Below, piece by piece: positions 2,629 through 9,760 of a DNA stretch of 64,000 nt. Origin of the DNA: Candidatus Kapaibacterium sp. (GTDB lineage Bacteria; Bacteroidota; Ignavibacteria; Kapaibacteriales; UBA2268); NCBI GenBank assembly GCA_963665665.1, contig OY762428.1:4000001-4064000 (forward strand), in the 5' to 3' direction. The notes below the pieces were generated by a model. It saw only the letters and a list, made by a program, of their open reading frames with translations. It was not told where the DNA came from and did not search any database. The position numbers and the translations under genes are program-made. Within the stretch, counting starts at the first letter, position 1, and every line of letters begins with the position of its first letter.

Positions 2629-3225
2629 TTAATTGCTTAATTTAACAAATTGTGATTTTAATGATTTGCCGTCGCTGGTGTGAACTATTATATAATAAAC
2701 TCCGCTTTGCAAACCGCCAATATTTATTCTTTCCCGAATGTTGTTCGTTCCTGATTTGAATAATGCCATGCCCCCGGTTTCGCTGAAAATACTGATATTA
2801 TTTACCCGGCTTATATTGCCGGGAATTTTTAGCACGATAAAATCCGAAGCCGGGTTTGGAAAGGCCTCAATGCCTGCGGAATTGTTGCCGGGCAATAATT
2901 CAATAATCCAGTTCCGTCCGCCGTCGTCGCTCCTGTAAACAAGGCAGGATTCTGCGTCCTTTTTAAAAACAGGTTTTTGGGTTATTTGAGTAATTTTATT
3001 CCAGTTCCGCCCGGAATCGGTTGAATAGAAATCAGAGCCGTTTTGTTTCTTCCATATTGTCTCGCCAAAATCAGCGCTGCCGGGCCGGTAAAACACTACT
3101 TTCCTGCACAATTTACCTTCGTGCTGCGAACTGCTGATTTCATAAGGCAGGCCTGAAAAAACGGGAGAAGCCCCGATAACAAGCAGCAGCGAAAGCAAAG
3201 TGATTTTTTTAATTGCTATTTTCAT
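2629..3225 (-). CDS. Small T9SS-sorted protein with two BNR/Asp-box repeats
   Basis: Signal peptide; STDSGRNW and SDDGGRNW; C-terminal AFPNPA...LQSGVYYIIV...FVK. Confidence 0.8.
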   Translation of the reverse strand: MKIAIKKITLLSLLLVIGASPVFSGLPYEISSSQHEGKLCRKVVFYRPGSADFGETIWKKQNGSDFYSTDSGRNWNKITQITQKPVFKKDAESCLVYRSDDGGRNWIIELLPGNNSAGIEAFPNPASDFIVLKIPGNISRVNNISIFSETGGMALFKSGTNNIRERINIGGLQSGVYYIIVHTSDGKSLKSQFVKLSN

Positions 3226-3237
3226 TTTATTCTCCGT

Positions 3238-4053
3238 TTATTCTTCAGGGCAAATTATTTCGCAGGGATCAAGGTATCTTTCTTCCCAGTATCCCGTGGG
3301 AGTACTTGAACCGGTACATTTATCATAGGGAGGAGTTGAATTTTCACAACTTGCTGAACTTGTTGACGATTCTGACTCCATGTAAACCTGTCCGTTGCAC
3401 ATACAGAAATACCTTGTTTGCGTACAACAGCCTTGGTTTGGCCCGTCGCAAGGCAAAGGGCATACAATCATTCTTGTTTCGTTATTTCTTGTAAACGTGC
3501 CGTGGCACAATGCCTGGCAGGCAGGCGACGAATAGAATACTTCGTAATTTTTACAATAGGGAAAGGTACAATTAGGAGGCGTTCCGCTGCAATCATAATC
3601 TGGTTTTCTTGAAGGGGCAAGCCCCGCGTAAAAATCTTCGAAAAAATCATAGGAAAGCTGGTCCATAAGGTTTGTTTTCATTACTTCAAAATTCCAGGGG
3701 CTCATGTAGGAAAAATCATCGGCATAATAGCCCGGGAAAAGGTAAGAAAGCAATCCCTGGCAAATTGTAGTATCCCAGTCCCATGAAAAAGAAATAGGTT
3801 TAAGTTGGACAATCGTTTTTGTACAGCCTCCTTCGGTATATGTACATTCGCGAAACTTGTATTTTATTGTTATCGGGCAGGTATAGCCCTGGTAGTAATA
3901 CGGGCTACTTTCAGTTTCTACAGACCAATCAAGACAATCAGCTCCTGAAGGTAAATTAGTTTCATAGCAGTCAATAGACTGTGCATTAGCGGAAATAAAA
4001 GAAACAACTATTGCTAATAATATAGCCGCTACCGGCGATTTTATCTTTTTCAT
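3238..4053 (-). CDS. Cysteine-rich secreted protein (21 Cys)
   Basis: Likely start MKKIKS at 4053 with signal peptide ending ANA-Q; the ORF track extends it to 4095. Confidence 0.8.
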   Translation of the reverse strand: MKKIKSPVAAILLAIVVSFISANAQSIDCYETNLPSGADCLDWSVETESSPYYYQGYTCPITIKYKFRECTYTEGGCTKTIVQLKPISFSWDWDTTICQGLLSYLFPGYYADDFSYMSPWNFEVMKTNLMDQLSYDFFEDFYAGLAPSRKPDYDCSGTPPNCTFPYCKNYEVFYSSPACQALCHGTFTRNNETRMIVCPLPCDGPNQGCCTQTRYFCMCNGQVYMESESSTSSASCENSTPPYDKCTGSSTPTGYWEERYLDPCEIICPEE

Positions 4054-4820
4054 AAAATATTTCTCTGTAAGAATATAAAATGTTATTTTTGACAATAGAA
4101 TATATAATATATTCTATAAGCGTTAAAATATACCAATCTTTGCGCGGGCGATTTACCATGGTGGCACGCGCTACAGGGCCGATAAAAAAATATTTTTTTA
4201 TCGGCTTCTATTTTTCCGATTTTTCTTATGGCGATCTTATCATAAACCCTCCAACTAAATAGCGTATCATTGAAAACAATTTTTCAAATGCGGCGGGGCA
4301 GTTTTTCCTGTTCCACCTTGTTTTATTATTAAGCTTAAATTAATTTAATAATAATTTGCAAGAAATCCAAAAAAATATTTGTATATTGTGGAAATATTCT
4401 AACTATATATATATATATAATTTGCTTGTTGGCGGCCAACAATATTACCATACAGAAATAAAGACGTATTTGCGGAAACTATGCGGGCATTTTAGTTTCC
4501 GCATTACTCATCCGGTGGGTAGAAACAATATATAGAGAACTATTATTCAATAAAATTGATTGTTGGAGAACGGATTGCCTGCGACATTTTTGTAGAAAGG
4601 CTTCCTATAATTCTTAATTTTCAATAAGGAAATTCCCGCCTTTAGGGCATCCCTTATTATTGAGGAGTGAAAGGTGGGGGGGAAGCGGGAGAAACAATTT
4701 TGATACGAAAGTTGTGAAATATTTCTGTTTCTGTAACATTTAATCGCAAATGATAATAATTTCTTCATCCCAAGCCTTTTATCTTTTATAAATATTTGCT
4801 TATTTTTCGTTTTTTGAAAT

Positions 4821-6944
4821 ATGGTTAAAAGAAAAATGAGTAATAGTAAAATCAATCAAAATGAATTGCCCGTATGGCTGGCAATTATTCCAATTTTGCT
4901 TACAGTTGCCCTTTTGGCGGTACAATTGATCGTTTTCAGGAGTTTCGACCCGCAGGCTCCGCTTTTGTTCGGTATAATGTTTTCTGCTCTTGTTGGAATC
5001 TCCAGGGGGTGGAAATGGCAGGACATGGAGAAGGGAATGTTCAATATCATTGTTATTTCCCTGCCGGCAATTGCTATACTTTTATTAATAGGTGTACTGA
5101 TAGGTTCGTGGGTTGCTTCGGGAACAGTACCCTTTCTGGTGTATTACGGACTGGAATTGCTTTCTCCGGAAATTTTTCTTGCCAGCGGTTTTGTGCTTTG
5201 TGCAATTATGTCCCTGGCGCTCGGTACTTCCTGGGGAACAATAGGAACGCTTGGTATTGTGATAGCAGGAATAGGCGAAACAATGGGCTTTCCTTTATGG
5301 CTTTCCACGGCCGCAGTTGTAAGCGGTGCATTCTTTGGAGATAAAATGTCACCTATATCTGATACCACTAATCTTGCACCTGCAATAACCGGTACAAAAG
5401 TTTACGATCATGTGCGCAATATGGTTCCCACAACAGTCCCGGCCATGATGGCAGGGCTTGTAGTTTACCTGATAATCGGTTTTTCCTATGATATTCCGGA
5501 GATGGACCATAGCAAAGTGGATCAGTTGTTAACAGTTATTGATTCAGGATTTGATCTTAATTTCCTGACACTGTTACCGCCAATTATTATTGTTATCCTG
5601 GCTTTGAGCGGCGTATCGGCTATCCCGGCAATGTTCGGAGGGGTATTCGCGGGATTAGTAATTGCTGTGGCAGTTCAGGGCCACTCGGTCGGGGAGATAT
5701 TTGAAATCATTCGTTCCGGCTACCATATTAAAACCGGGCTTCCTTCGGCAGATAACCTGTTTAACAGGGGTGGTATCGTATCAATGAGCGATACCATGTC
5801 TATAGTTTTCTTTGCCCTGACTTTTGGCGGTATTCTTGAAAGGATTGGCGTTTTTGATGCAATATTGAAACATCTACTGAAAAGGATAAAAAAATTCTGG
5901 CAGTTGCAGGTCAGCGCTATCAGCGGTACCATTATGATGATACTCGGAACGGGTGATTCATATCTGCCAATGGCTTTTATCGGAAGATTATTTTCCAAGG
6001 CTTATGATAAATTCGGGTATTCGCGCCTGAACCTTTCCAGGGCCATTGAGGAAGGCGGAACCCTTATGACGCCGCTGATTCCCTGGAGTGCCAGTGGTAT
6101 TTTTGTTAGTACAACACTCGGCCTTGGAATCACAGAAGGCAATGTTGAGAACCTGCTTTATATTCCCTTGTCTATTGGTTGCTGGCTTTCCCCGATATTG
6201 GGTATAATATTCCCGATAATGGGTTGGTTCTCGAAAAAGGCAACTCCTGAAGAAATTAAAGCTTATTCCGGAGCGGATTCTGATTCTGCAAATATAAGCC
6301 AGCCATTCAAATCATTCCTGAAATGGTATAACCCACCGGTAAATGCTTATGTATCAACACCGGAAATAGCTTTGAAAAATGATATTTCTGATGTTGAAAT
6401 ACCGCTGAAGGAAGTTCTGGAGCACGGGAATATGGGTTTTGCCCATTCCGGGAACAACCTGGTACTTATCAATAATAATATATCATATATTGTTAATGAT
6501 GATATGAACGTAAGTCCTGTTGATGGGAATGTAAACCTTCATGCTGTTAACCTTACTCATTTTTCAAAAGATTATGACGAGACAGTTGAAACTTCTGACG
6601 GGTCTGAAATAAATAAAATTATTCCTGCTGTTCTTCCTTCGCAAAATATGATCTATGGTTTTAATGCTGATGCTGTATTTAAAGCGTTAACATTAAAGAA
6701 CGGAGGCCAATCTGTTGTAATTGAAAATACTTATGGCCGTGTATTTGGATTCTATTATCCTGATTTTATGAAGAACATTGCCGGCGGCCTGAAATTATTC
6801 TATATTGACAGTAAGCGTGAAAAAGGCGGCATGATAGAAAGCGGCTTGATGACAAAACTTGAACTGGAAATAAGCCAGATACCAAAACTTAATGCCGGCC
6901 TTCCGGTAACTGTGAACTTCCTTACAGCTGATCTTGAAGGGTAG
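4821..6944 (+). CDS. nhaC: NhaC-family Na+/H+ antiporter or amino-acid transporter with C-terminal acetolactate-decarboxylase-like domain
   Basis: GTSWGT, GAFFGDKMSPISDTTNLA and LSRAIEEGGT NhaC motifs; ~200-aa soluble C-terminal extension. Confidence 0.85.
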   Translation: MVKRKMSNSKINQNELPVWLAIIPILLTVALLAVQLIVFRSFDPQAPLLFGIMFSALVGISRGWKWQDMEKGMFNIIVISLPAIAILLLIGVLIGSWVASGTVPFLVYYGLELLSPEIFLASGFVLCAIMSLALGTSWGTIGTLGIVIAGIGETMGFPLWLSTAAVVSGAFFGDKMSPISDTTNLAPAITGTKVYDHVRNMVPTTVPAMMAGLVVYLIIGFSYDIPEMDHSKVDQLLTVIDSGFDLNFLTLLPPIIIVILALSGVSAIPAMFGGVFAGLVIAVAVQGHSVGEIFEIIRSGYHIKTGLPSADNLFNRGGIVSMSDTMSIVFFALTFGGILERIGVFDAILKHLLKRIKKFWQLQVSAISGTIMMILGTGDSYLPMAFIGRLFSKAYDKFGYSRLNLSRAIEEGGTLMTPLIPWSASGIFVSTTLGLGITEGNVENLLYIPLSIGCWLSPILGIIFPIMGWFSKKATPEEIKAYSGADSDSANISQPFKSFLKWYNPPVNAYVSTPEIALKNDISDVEIPLKEVLEHGNMGFAHSGNNLVLINNNISYIVNDDMNVSPVDGNVNLHAVNLTHFSKDYDETVETSDGSEINKIIPAVLPSQNMIYGFNADAVFKALTLKNGGQSVVIENTYGRVFGFYYPDFMKNIAGGLKLFYIDSKREKGGMIESGLMTKLELEISQIPKLNAGLPVTVNFLTADLEG

Positions 6945-6999
6945 GGGGGATAATCAAGTTTCCTGGGGACAATGGAATTGCTCCGAAAGCTGGAAACTA

Positions 7000-7069
7000 A
7001 GTCATTCTGTACGCAGCAAAGAATCCTAATCTACTATGAACAATGGGTTTTTTACCGTACAGAATGACT
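7000..7069. repeat. REP/MITE-like element with 14-bp terminal inverted repeats
   Basis: agtcattctgtacg (7000-7013) and cgtacagaatgact (7056-7069), between convergent genes. Confidence 0.6.
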
Positions 7070-7105
7070 AAACCAATAAATTCAGAATTAAAAAAGTTAT
7101 GGCCA

Positions 7106-7681
7106 TTATTTTTTGGGAAAATTTATTACAGCTGTTTTTGAAAGCGAATCATGAAAACCATCCTGAAAAAACAGGAAAGAAAAATTTTCAAAAGGAATTA
7201 ATCTACAGAGTGTTCTGCCTATTATCCTTGCAATTCCCGGAACATCGCCATTGTAATCCACAACTTTTGTTCCGGTAAGAAATTTTCCGACAGTCCTCTG
7301 GAATTTATTTTCCATAATGCCGTAATATAAAACAAATATTAACGGATAAATAATCAGATCAAGTATAGCCATACCATTTTTCAAGCCAAATAATAATTCC
7401 AGCCCCATTGTAATTACAATAGCAATTGAAATTATTATTATCATATCAACTACCATGTGGATGAATCTTTTGAATTTTCCGGCTTCGTCAAGTTCAATTT
7501 CATCTTCAACATCGTCGGTTCTATCAGCCAAAGGATATGAAATATCAATACCCCTCGACCGAAGTTCATTTATAGCTGTTTCGATGAACTCCTCAGGGTA
7601 ATTATGCCGGTCTTTATTCACAATATAAAGAAGTTCGCTATCGTTTTTTCTCGAAACAGAGTTTATTATATCCGAATTCAT
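7106..7681 (-). CDS. RDD family membrane protein
   Basis: KRFIHMVVD, RTVGKFLTGTKVV, RTLCRLIPFE and FHDSLSKT motifs. Confidence 0.9.
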   Translation of the reverse strand: MNSDIINSVSRKNDSELLYIVNKDRHNYPEEFIETAINELRSRGIDISYPLADRTDDVEDEIELDEAGKFKRFIHMVVDMIIIISIAIVITMGLELLFGLKNGMAILDLIIYPLIFVLYYGIMENKFQRTVGKFLTGTKVVDYNGDVPGIARIIGRTLCRLIPFENFSFLFFQDGFHDSLSKTAVINFPKK

Positions 7682-7734: not shown

Positions 7735-8388
7735 TCAACTAATCAATTTTTCAACAATTCTATAGACCTGAGAACCAAGTTCTTTTGGAATAATATCTTT
7801 GGTGTTATCATGTTCCTTACCCTGGCCAATAGCAAAATCTACCCTATCCATAAATCTTTTTGGTTTGGGATTATTCTTATTCCAACCTCCCGGAATCAGC
7901 GTTTGCAGGTATTTGTCAATATATTTTTTCCTGCCGCCGGGAACTTTTTTATTTTCAAGTAATTTCCTCCTAACTTCTGGGCTTAAACAGTTAATATCAA
8001 CAAAATGCATTGCAATCCAAATTTCAAAACAGGGATTACTGATTGCAGGAAAAAAATTTCCTTCTTCATTACACATCAGAACAATTTTATTAAGATTTTT
8101 CCATCTATCAACATCTACGATCATCCAAAATTCATCAGAAGGATATAAATGATACTTTTCCTTAATTTCATCTTTTAAAAGATTGAAAACATGAATTGGA
8201 GCGCTCCTTGTATCATCCTTTCCTCTTTTAATAATATGAATATGAATATTCGACGGAATCATTTTGTTATCAATTAATTCCCTGAAATACTTCTCTTCCG
8301 TAATATTCCCTTCGAAAGTCAGAATATATATTTTTTCCGGTTCGATGATATCAGAATCTCTGTATAAATGTGATCTTTCCCGTGCCAT
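7735..8388 (-). CDS. rloB: RloB family protein
   Basis: FEGNITEEKYF, WMIVDVD and ISNPCFEIWIAMHF motifs; directly downstream of an AAA ATPase. Confidence 0.9.
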   Translation of the reverse strand: MARERSHLYRDSDIIEPEKIYILTFEGNITEEKYFRELIDNKMIPSNIHIHIIKRGKDDTRSAPIHVFNLLKDEIKEKYHLYPSDEFWMIVDVDRWKNLNKIVLMCNEEGNFFPAISNPCFEIWIAMHFVDINCLSPEVRRKLLENKKVPGGRKKYIDKYLQTLIPGGWNKNNPKPKRFMDRVDFAIGQGKEHDNTKDIIPKELGSQVYRIVEKLIS

Positions 8389-8389
8389 A

Positions 8390-9760
8390 TCAGTTATTTA
8401 ACAAGTGTGAAATATCGGGTTTATTGATTTTTGGAACAGCTTTAAATCTTCCGAGAAGATAATCCAACCTGGTATTTTTATCGAAATCAGTTTTAAATTC
8501 ATCAAGAGAGTATAATTTTGTTGCCAAAGATTCATCTTTCCTGAAAAACCAAATTTCATCCTTCCTGAATAGATCATTATTCAATAGCAAATTCTCATGA
8601 GAAGTAAAGATCAACTGGCTATTTTTATTTTTTGATAACACAAATATTAATTCTAAAAATTTTATTACCATGTTGGGATGCATACTTCGTTCAATTTCAT
8701 CAATGAAAAACACTTTGTTTCCCGCGCTGAAATCAAGCAAGAGTGGAATAAAATCAATTAGACGATTAGTACCGTCGGATTCTTGGTTGGAGTCAAAAAG
8801 TACAGGTTCGTATTTATCACCTATCTTGTGTTGAGTCATAAATTTATAAAATGCCAACTCTCCATTTTCTATCGTAATAAAATAATTTTTATTTGTTGAG
8901 GAATAAACCGAGATATAATCCCCTTCATTTTGAACAGTAGAAAGGTTATCCAAAGCTTTTTTTATAGTCTCGGGGGGGATTTCAATTTTATCTCTTGCAA
9001 TTTTTTTAATAGCCACACTATCTATTCCGGTATCAAAATAATCTAATAAACCCGAAAAGATTTCTAAAAGATTTGATTTTTTTTGAATATAAAATCTTGT
9101 ACCGACTTTATATTTATCATCCGGAAAAATTGTAATCAGTGAATTAGCAAACCAATCAATAACATTCAAAATATCATCAATATTCCTGACATTATCTTTT
9201 ACTTTCCTGTTTTTAATTTCAGTAAGTAATAATTGATTGTCAGGAGTACTTTTGGCGATAAACCTGATAAACTGTTTATCTTCCTCATCACTATTCAAAT
9301 TCAATAAATAATTTAGATCGTAAATATTCTTAATTGATTCGTCCCTGTCAAAAATCTTAATTTCATTTTTATCAGTTATTTGATAAAGCCATTCCTCGGT
9401 AATCTTCTTTCTTGAAAAAACGAATCCATAAGCGTAATTTTTTCCATTGCTTTGTAATTCAAATTCCATCCGCGATAATTTATTTCTATTATCCGGATCA
9501 AGCTGAAAATTTTGAAAATCAATTTCAGAATCAGGTTTATTTCCGTTTAAAACAAGATTTCTCCCAAACCGTACAGCTTTAATTAAATTGGATTTTCCGG
9601 AAGCGTTAGGCCCGAACATTACAGAATATTTAAGCGTTTTAATGCCATTTACTTTTTTTCCGATATGTTCCTTCTTTTCACTACTTTTCCCGGGTATCAT
9701 TATTATTGATTGCCTGTCTTTGAAGGATAGAAAATTTTCTATGGTAAATCTTATCAGCAT
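8390..9760 (-). CDS. RloA/AAA_21-type ABC-family ATPase
   Basis: ENFLSFKD, Walker A GPNASGKSN, ESDGT signature, Walker B FFIDEIERSMHP, QLIFTSH, YLLGRFKAVP. Confidence 0.9.
   Translation of the reverse strand: MLIRFTIENFLSFKDRQSIIMIPGKSSEKKEHIGKKVNGIKTLKYSVMFGPNASGKSNLIKAVRFGRNLVLNGNKPDSEIDFQNFQLDPDNRNKLSRMEFELQSNGKNYAYGFVFSRKKITEEWLYQITDKNEIKIFDRDESIKNIYDLNYLLNLNSDEEDKQFIRFIAKSTPDNQLLLTEIKNRKVKDNVRNIDDILNVIDWFANSLITIFPDDKYKVGTRFYIQKKSNLLEIFSGLLDYFDTGIDSVAIKKIARDKIEIPPETIKKALDNLSTVQNEGDYISVYSSTNKNYFITIENGELAFYKFMTQHKIGDKYEPVLFDSNQESDGTNRLIDFIPLLLDFSAGNKVFFIDEIERSMHPNMVIKFLELIFVLSKNKNSQLIFTSHENLLLNNDLFRKDEIWFFRKDESLATKLYSLDEFKTDFDKNTRLDYLLGRFKAVPKINKPDISHLLNN

Follow-up and report, generated by a model that had tools for sequence, protein, structure and literature searches.

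Several transporters are known to carry fused soluble modules, among them the SulP-STAS-beta-carbonic anhydrase proteins and the channels and transporters that bear CBS or RCK domains. The fusion described here resembles these systems in that a cytoplasmic enzyme-derived or ligand-binding domain is placed on a secondary transporter. It differs from them in that the enzyme appears to be dead, the fold is that of acetolactate decarboxylase (ALDC), and two unrelated transporter families are involved. The soluble part shares its fold, its Pfam family and a predicted two-fold dimer with the AlsD/BudA ALDCs (EC 4.1.1.5; PF03306, TIGR01252; structures 4bt2, 5xne and 6inb), but it is tethered to a transporter, falls below the TIGR01252 cut-off, and lacks the Zn His triad, Thr58, Glu65, Arg145 and Glu253, with the Arg loop deleted. 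The membrane part belongs to the NhaC family (TIGR00931, PF03553, COG1757; B. subtilis MleN, ArcD-type exchangers, LysW), whose cut-off it passes and whose core motifs it keeps; the extra C-terminal domain of ~200 aa was present only in the fusion and absent from the unfused relatives fetched. According to the available text of two papers, NhaC-family genes under lysine riboswitches may encode amino-acid transporters or true antiporters (PMC5584792, PMC11477304). The preliminary description of this locus knew of no account of such a fusion, and likewise we found no paper describing an NhaC-ALDC or SulP-STAS-ALDC fusion among the listings and abstracts of the open literature.

The fusion gene and its transporter part

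The window, that is, the whole 64,000-nucleotide stretch of Candidatus Kapaibacterium sp. DNA that was analysed, lies in a host genome consisting of one contig (5.46 Mb, 99.5% complete). The features of the fusion gene are as follows.

4821..6944, + strand: fusion ORF (P0001), a single ORF of 707 aa comprising an NhaC-family transporter and an ALDC-fold domain
4872..6221, + strand: NhaC-family (ion-transporter superfamily, elevator-type) membrane domain, residues 18-467, from TIGR00931, AF2 helices, Foldseek and motifs
6222..6338, + strand: linker of ~40 residues, most likely cytoplasmic, with a helix (476-485) and then a low-confidence stretch (487-504), from AF2 pLDDT and K/R alternation
6303..6335, + strand: aromatic motif PxxxFLxWYxP, residues 495-505
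6339..6941, + strand: putative ALDC-fold pseudo-enzyme domain, residues ~507-707, from PF03306, PDB sequence matches and fold Z scores of 26-27

A possible alternative ATG start is found at 4836, and both flanking genes lie on the opposite strand. In runs X1 and X3, which represent one sample and possibly the source of the DNA, the junction between the two parts lay inside one contig spanning 4700-7100 with 0 differences. Contigs 5895-6333 and 6309-6606 of another study (X4) cover it too, with no indel or stop listed. The preliminary description had allowed that the fusion might be unique and due to a lost stop codon or a misassembly. These explanations, as well as artefact and read-through, were ruled out by the junction-spanning contigs together with the same fusion in other genomes, where six other full-length NhaC fusions were found. 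Codon use was uninformative as to a recent chimaera, the GC3 being 0.43 in the transporter part and 0.32 in the ALDC-fold domain, against genome quartiles of 0.34-0.41.

No Rfam match near the gathering score was found in 4000-7300, and promoter-like sites were about as frequent as expected by chance (13 vs 9.8+-3.3). The minus strand of the window carries, two genes downstream of the fusion, an RloB-like gene and an AAA_21 ATPase (7735-9760), an RloAB/AbiE-like pair in a stretch of low GC (0.29-0.33). On the other side lie, also on the minus strand, a gene for a cysteine-rich secreted protein of ~285 aa, for which Pfam gave nothing over cut-off (3238-4095), and, after it, genes for two products bearing T9SS C-terminal sorting domains (2629-3225 and 1120-2544).

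The transporter part passed the family thresholds by sequence, PF03553 matching residues 169-469 (199.7 bits, cut-off 23) and TIGR00931 giving 415 bits against a cut-off of 370. Across the six NhaC fusions scanned, the latter score ranged from 398 to 418 bits, a seventh (P0059) having been scanned against Pfam only. The hairpin and broken-helix motifs are intact (GTSWGT, FFGDKMSPISDTT, GDSY, EEGGT...PW), and the transport motifs of the fusion are those of its unfused relatives. When the full-length AF2 model (pLDDT 91) was submitted to Foldseek, the integrative model of MleN (9a59; 32% identity) came first, followed by ALDC crystal structures and then by TRAP/DASS transporters. Thus the IT/DASS-like fold, with its two hairpins and broken helices, is present in the transporter part. 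For the NhaC family, the PDB fold search returned the integrative model 9a59 only and no experimental structure.

Membership of the NhaC family is, at the level of sequence, no proof of Na+/H+ antiport, and the link to pH homeostasis drawn in the preliminary description from the two parent families was not supported. The equivalog for the arginine/ornithine antiporter ArcD (NF052307) was also below its cut-off (344 vs 650). Among the 80 nearest unfused GTDB relatives, which share 44-52% identity and come mostly from marine Pseudomonadota, 21 (from 14 of 38 genus labels) had an amino- or imino-acid catabolic gene within 4 kb of the transporter, and 19 had a GbdR-like regulator within that distance; these kin are not independent, and the counts come without a background rate. 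The catabolic genes were pipecolate-oxidase-like, AmaB or PutA, D-amino-acid-dehydrogenase-like, cyclodeaminase-like, SoxG, and PurU or GlyA, each cluster being named from one or two representatives. Such a neighbourhood is a hint that the substrate is an amino or imino acid and not Na+/H+. As guesses, we would give an amino or imino acid an even chance, regard Na+/H+ as somewhat unlikely, and regard a carboxylate as unlikely.

The ALDC-fold domain is most likely cytoplasmic. Lysine/arginine-rich loops alternate with acidic loops in a pattern that would put the N-terminus, the C-terminal tail and residues 60-78, 188-200, 339-360 and 388-408 inside. Past residue 470, the chain has no other hydrophobic segment. 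Residues 487-504 of the linker were modelled at pLDDT below 50. The length of the linker was 39-40 residues in five NhaC fusions and 47 in two. The motif PxxxFLxWYxP, just before the domain, was common to all seven and found in none of the aligned stand-alone ALDCs, and is a possible docking helix candidate. Intact ALDCs with an N-terminal extension were also observed (P0010, P0012 and the gene at L228:1465-2295), the extension of P0012 giving a weak ribbon-helix-helix match (PF22513) below cut-off. The FLKWY helix of the fusion may be derived from an extension of the P0010/P0012 type.

An ALDC-fold domain and its former active site

The C-terminal ~200 aa had been described as following the ALDC pattern, and this description held: all of the quoted motifs are present, and PF03306 (AAL_decarboxy) matched residues 517-706 with 67 bits (cut-off 25, E 1.9e-18). 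Six of the eight PDB sequence matches to the domain were ALDCs, the best with an E value of 3.8e-11. The AF2 model of the domain alone (pLDDT 94) was then compared with solved structures by VIA-align, and matched the ALDCs 6inb, 4bt2 and 1xv2 with Z scores of 27.1, 26.4 and 26.1, at an rmsd of ~2 A over ~200 residues (best 2.0 A, 197 aligned). The two-domain alpha/beta fold of ALDC is thus present in the model. Other members of the ALDC-like superfamily, although related in fold, gave much weaker matches: PTD012 had a Z score of 14.2, the PPC (DUF296) proteins 8-9.5, and the next unrelated structure 4.3. Descent from a specific ALDC subfamily sets the domain apart from PPC/DUF296 and PTD012. 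PPC domains are oligomerisation modules. The ESM Atlas was blank for the NhaC-fusion domain, and for the domain of the SulP fusions described below it held generic ALDC clusters only.

The active site of the B. brevis ALDC comprises Thr58, Glu65, Arg145, His194, His196, His207 and Glu253/254, according to the available text of the source (PMC9090609). Two of its elements can be placed on the fusion gene by alignment, with roles taken from that text.

6792..6833, + strand: former Zn site, in which the equivalents of His194, His196 and His207 are K658, F660 and M671
6690..6716, + strand: deleted Arg145 loop (ALDC segment RSV...Q), with a short hairpin in its place

The loss of all three Zn histidines, as proposed in the preliminary description, was borne out, and the loss proved to be wider. 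Thr58, Glu65 and Arg145 are replaced, ~15 residues past Arg145 are deleted, and the chain stops before the C-terminal helix that carries Glu253. The alignment is gappy around the Thr58 and Glu65 columns, which makes the exact residues there less sure; in P0007, one of the fusions, the Glu65 column is occupied by Glu. Across the seven NhaC fusions, the three His columns read KNNKKSA, FFFFFFG and MKRRRLR, that is, 0 of 21 Zn histidines, while all 34 comparison ALDCs, a set picked as His-intact, keep every one. With all seven active-site residues lost, the domain is, as far as sequence can tell, catalytically dead. Accordingly, the claim of a dead ALDC-like domain fused to an NhaC transporter was upheld by the family cut-offs, by the fold, and by recurrence in other genomes. 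TIGR01252, the equivalog of the enzyme, scored only 47.3 bits, far below its cut-off of 180.65. Databases name such proteins acetolactate decarboxylases (the IMG names of P0008 and P0060), and this mislabelling is a warning on the ALDC annotation of fusions.

Could the domain still catalyse some other reaction without a metal, or sense pH directly in connection with Na+/H+ antiport? In favour of such a role, the fold is fully intact and the protein is over the NhaC cut-off. However, none of the domain positions conserved in the fusions is a His, Cys, Asp, Lys or Arg; the polar ones are E587, S512, T579, S607, N609, Q686, T697 and T702. In addition, the host has two other CPA-family exchangers. 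We consider this explanation very unlikely.

Stand-alone proteins without an intact site were also encountered. Five ALDC-fold proteins (P0014, P0016, P0029, P0034 and P0038) have signal-peptide- or lipobox-like N-termini and lack the Zn histidines, four of them with a short Arg-loop deletion like that of the fusion. Being apart from the transporter fusions in a quick tree, they probably represent a further independent inactivation. P0043 is a divergent ALDC-like protein with one His only near the Zn site, a short loop and a long tree branch. A divergent secreted PF03306 subfamily was found in genomes of the same class (L183-L191), and in the three sequences read (L183, L187, L188), HxH...GH was kept and the canonical Arg loop was absent.

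Recurrence of the NhaC fusion and a second fusion on SulP

The preliminary description had suggested a survey of the architecture in other genomes. A region search of proteins of 388-1238 residues returned four of 940 candidates, namely the fusion gene from another assembly and three fusions of 701-708 residues with 43-46% domain identity. An exhaustive search of 50% representatives gave 52 matches, the top six of which include two further full-length fusions and two fragments; the cluster of one fragment held another fusion, of 703 residues. Identity among the seven full-length NhaC fusions now known is 45-73% for the transporter and 25-50% for the domain. Their domains formed one clade with support of 100/100 (37 rows, LG+G4; composition bias flagged for four) and fell into two subgroups. 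Both subgroups were recovered by the transporter tree (FastTree, 46 of 157 recovered NhaC rows), where support for joining them was only 73. In a mixture-model quick tree, the NhaC domains formed no exclusive clade (support 24; 95 with P0050 inside). Judged by these sequences, the NhaC-ALDC fusion has been retained over the long term.

The fusion is nevertheless rare, its sources being metagenome-type records and a few genomes only. It was absent from 60 relatives, from 400 other genomes of the class (29 had PF03306, all in open frames below 290 aa), and from 400 other genomes of the phylum, where the longest frame among 25 PF03306 matches (528 aa) was an intact secreted ALDC. PF03306-like sequence was found at none of 160 fetched NhaC loci, those of the 80 nearest unfused relatives included, so close relatives evidently manage without the domain. 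One of the fetched loci (L085) proved to be the fusion gene cut by a contig end: it holds the 5' part of the P0005 gene, and its neighbours have 45-62% homologues elsewhere in the host genome. A related host thus has the fusion in another neighbourhood, L085 being the one DNA context available among the other NhaC fusions.

Next, we searched for long ALDC-containing proteins (693-2000 aa). One match among 8000 candidates scored, P0058, has the architecture SulP-STAS-ALDC, and P0060 represents a second cluster of such fusions. In the order to which the Sedimenticola locus L075 belongs, PF03306 was found in 49 of 380 genomes and in frames above 800 aa in two, and both of these frames are SulP fusions.

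L229:5806-8481: SulP-STAS-ALDC fusion with a His-less ALDC domain, encoding the P0058/P0061 cluster
L230:137-2587: SulP-STAS-ALDC fusion with a His-less ALDC domain, encoding a third protein

All three distinct SulP fusion proteins lack the His triad, and all three have Arg at the His207 position. STAS presumably being cytoplasmic, the ALDC domain that follows it should be cytoplasmic too. The SulP-fusion domains formed a single group (100/99), with intact enzymes as its sister (100/98) and separate from the NhaC clade, which indicates that fusion and inactivation happened twice; the SulP proteins thus constitute, by their sequences, a second and independent dead ALDC fusion. A 100/98 branch places both fusion types together with one ALDC subfamily, whose members end in LPx[TS]xDYL. 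Between L229 and L230, dN/dS was 0.10 for SulP, 0.18 for STAS and 0.21 for the dead domain (bootstrap CI 0.13-0.30), a Nei-Gojobori estimate for this one SulP pair only. Other ALDC fusions with an intact active site were a chorismate mutase type II-ALDC protein (P0045) and a secreted N-terminal domain of ~290 residues joined to ALDC (L252:381-1952).

The SulP hosts G571 and G653 keep intact ALDC copies of the same subfamily elsewhere (L233, L234), and there the dead domain may conceivably pair with an active enzyme. In the Kapaibacterium host such pairing is impossible, the fusion being the sole PF03306 match.

Rarity is also what would be expected of a tolerated relic, formed by an ancient fusion of neighbouring genes, deprived of enzyme activity, without a role in transport, and persisting only as a harmless folded, dimer-satisfied tail. 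The domain diverges faster than the transporter, and its absence from relatives, class and phylum genomes and close unfused transporters fits such an origin. However, one stop codon could remove the domain, yet it is whole in 7/7 fusions, down to 25% identity, a count for which the searches select, members that lost the domain being uncounted. In addition, the linker motif is conserved and the linker length near-constant, and the path of fusing and then dying was taken twice, with the dN/dS of 0.21 in the SulP pair. We regard a mere relic as unlikely.

Intact enzymes of the donor subfamily were found next to importer genes, with the ALDC gene convergent to them.

L256:2396-10557: intact same-clade ALDC-importer locus, with a STAS protein
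L257:9972-17485: intact same-clade ALDC-importer locus, with a SpoIIE-type phosphatase
L258:6911-10729: intact same-clade ALDC-importer locus, with a STAS protein

At these loci, few in number, the ALDC adjoins amino-acid ABC or NCS2 importers and an RsbW-type kinase, which suggests a tie of the subfamily to uptake control. This would agree with a role as ligand sensor, in which a small metabolite from the cytoplasm would bind in the opened pocket, now without metal, and so gate transport, dimerisation being only a scaffold; a carboxylate or a 2-oxo or hydroxy acid, held by Arg in place of the Zn charge, would be an example. The His207 position is Arg in four of the seven NhaC fusions (Lys in one) as well as in the SulP fusions, thus in independent lineages, and the His196 position is Phe in six of seven. 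On the other hand, His to Arg is a single base change, the protein of the window has Met there, the ALDC genes at the three loci are convergent to the importer genes, and the six alignable old pocket positions have a mean identity of 0.26 in the NhaC fusions, not above the 0.29 of the rest of the domain. Moreover, neither acetolactate synthase nor IlvC was found over cut-off in the host, and the only two TPP enzymes that passed the Pfam cut-off were an indolepyruvate-decarboxylase-like protein and MenD; the host is a probable branched-chain amino acid auxotroph on this gene content. Acetolactate sensing is therefore unlikely, and the link to acetolactate or acetoin as ligand, raised in the preliminary description, found no backing in either the host or the pocket. 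A ligand sensor in general we consider rather improbable.

Conservation of the predicted dimer surface and the proposed role

The preliminary description had also offered an assembly module as one use of the domain, and this option was supported by the homodimer model and by the conservation of its interface.

6876..6938, + strand: main predicted homodimer segment, residues 686-706, Q...LPxTxxFLT, from the homodimer model and conservation

In the predicted homodimer, this segment pairs with residues 606-611 and 647-653. The model scored 0.79 (pLDDT 89), while the best of three controls scored 0.00, and contacts agreed by at least 93% between runs. For this complex score, 20 of 30 solved homodimers attain the mark, as does one of 23 monomers. 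Since solved ALDC homodimers exist, the score may come from likeness, and alone it would be no demonstration that this copy of the domain binds itself.

Conservation provides a line of evidence separate from the model. The 29 interface positions had a mean pairwise identity of 0.61 in the NhaC-fusion domains, compared with 0.29 elsewhere (P ~1e-8); compared with other strand positions, P was ~1e-7, and none of 198 shifted masks reached the interface value. The seven fusions being related, these P values overstate independence. In ten intact enzymes of the same clade, the interface stood at 0.64 and the rest at 0.49. The ratio of interface to rest was thus 2.1 in the NhaC fusions and 1.3 in these ten, while 1000 random seven-member subsets of the 34 intact ALDCs gave 0.93+-0.09, with a maximum of 1.25. 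As the three less diverged SulP fusions had a ratio of only 1.26, the signal is clear for the NhaC fusions alone. Comparison of 0.61 with 0.64 and of 0.29 with 0.49 indicates that the interface has kept the level of constraint that it inherited, constraint on the remainder of the domain having loosened. Because the interface is conserved above average in the intact donor clade too, the dimer surface would have been retained and not newly gained. In sequence terms, the predicted dimer surface of the NhaC fusions is selectively conserved.

We propose that the dead ALDC domain is a pseudo-enzyme dimerisation module tethered to an elevator-type transporter, the most likely of the readings in our view, with about an even chance of being right. 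The last transmembrane helix of the NhaC-family secondary transporter would carry the domain into the cytoplasm, where, on its flexible tether of ~40 residues, it is predicted to form a homodimer. DASS transporters are dimers in which the last helix is part of the mobile transport domain, according to the available text of PMC7553777. By its fold match, the transporter of the fusion may be a dimer like these relatives, in which case its two ALDC domains could pair beneath the membrane. As this helix is in the moving elevator part of DASS proteins, the pair would either stabilise the dimer or hold back and link the two elevators.

A bolder extension, which we think improbable, is that one ALDC-fold subfamily is a general transport-control module, fused at least twice to unrelated transporters and now a metal-free, dimeric, Arg-based acid sensor that gates transport allosterically. 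If true, this would add a new class to the regulatory domains of transporters, on a par with CBS, RCK or STAS.

The reach of the finding is limited by the rarity of the fusion. Within the NhaC family, it would add a soluble partner domain. More broadly, the locus offers a natural case in which the change from enzyme to pseudo-enzyme took place in parallel on two unrelated transporters and the retained surface can be identified, which makes the claim directly testable by domain deletion and interface mutants.
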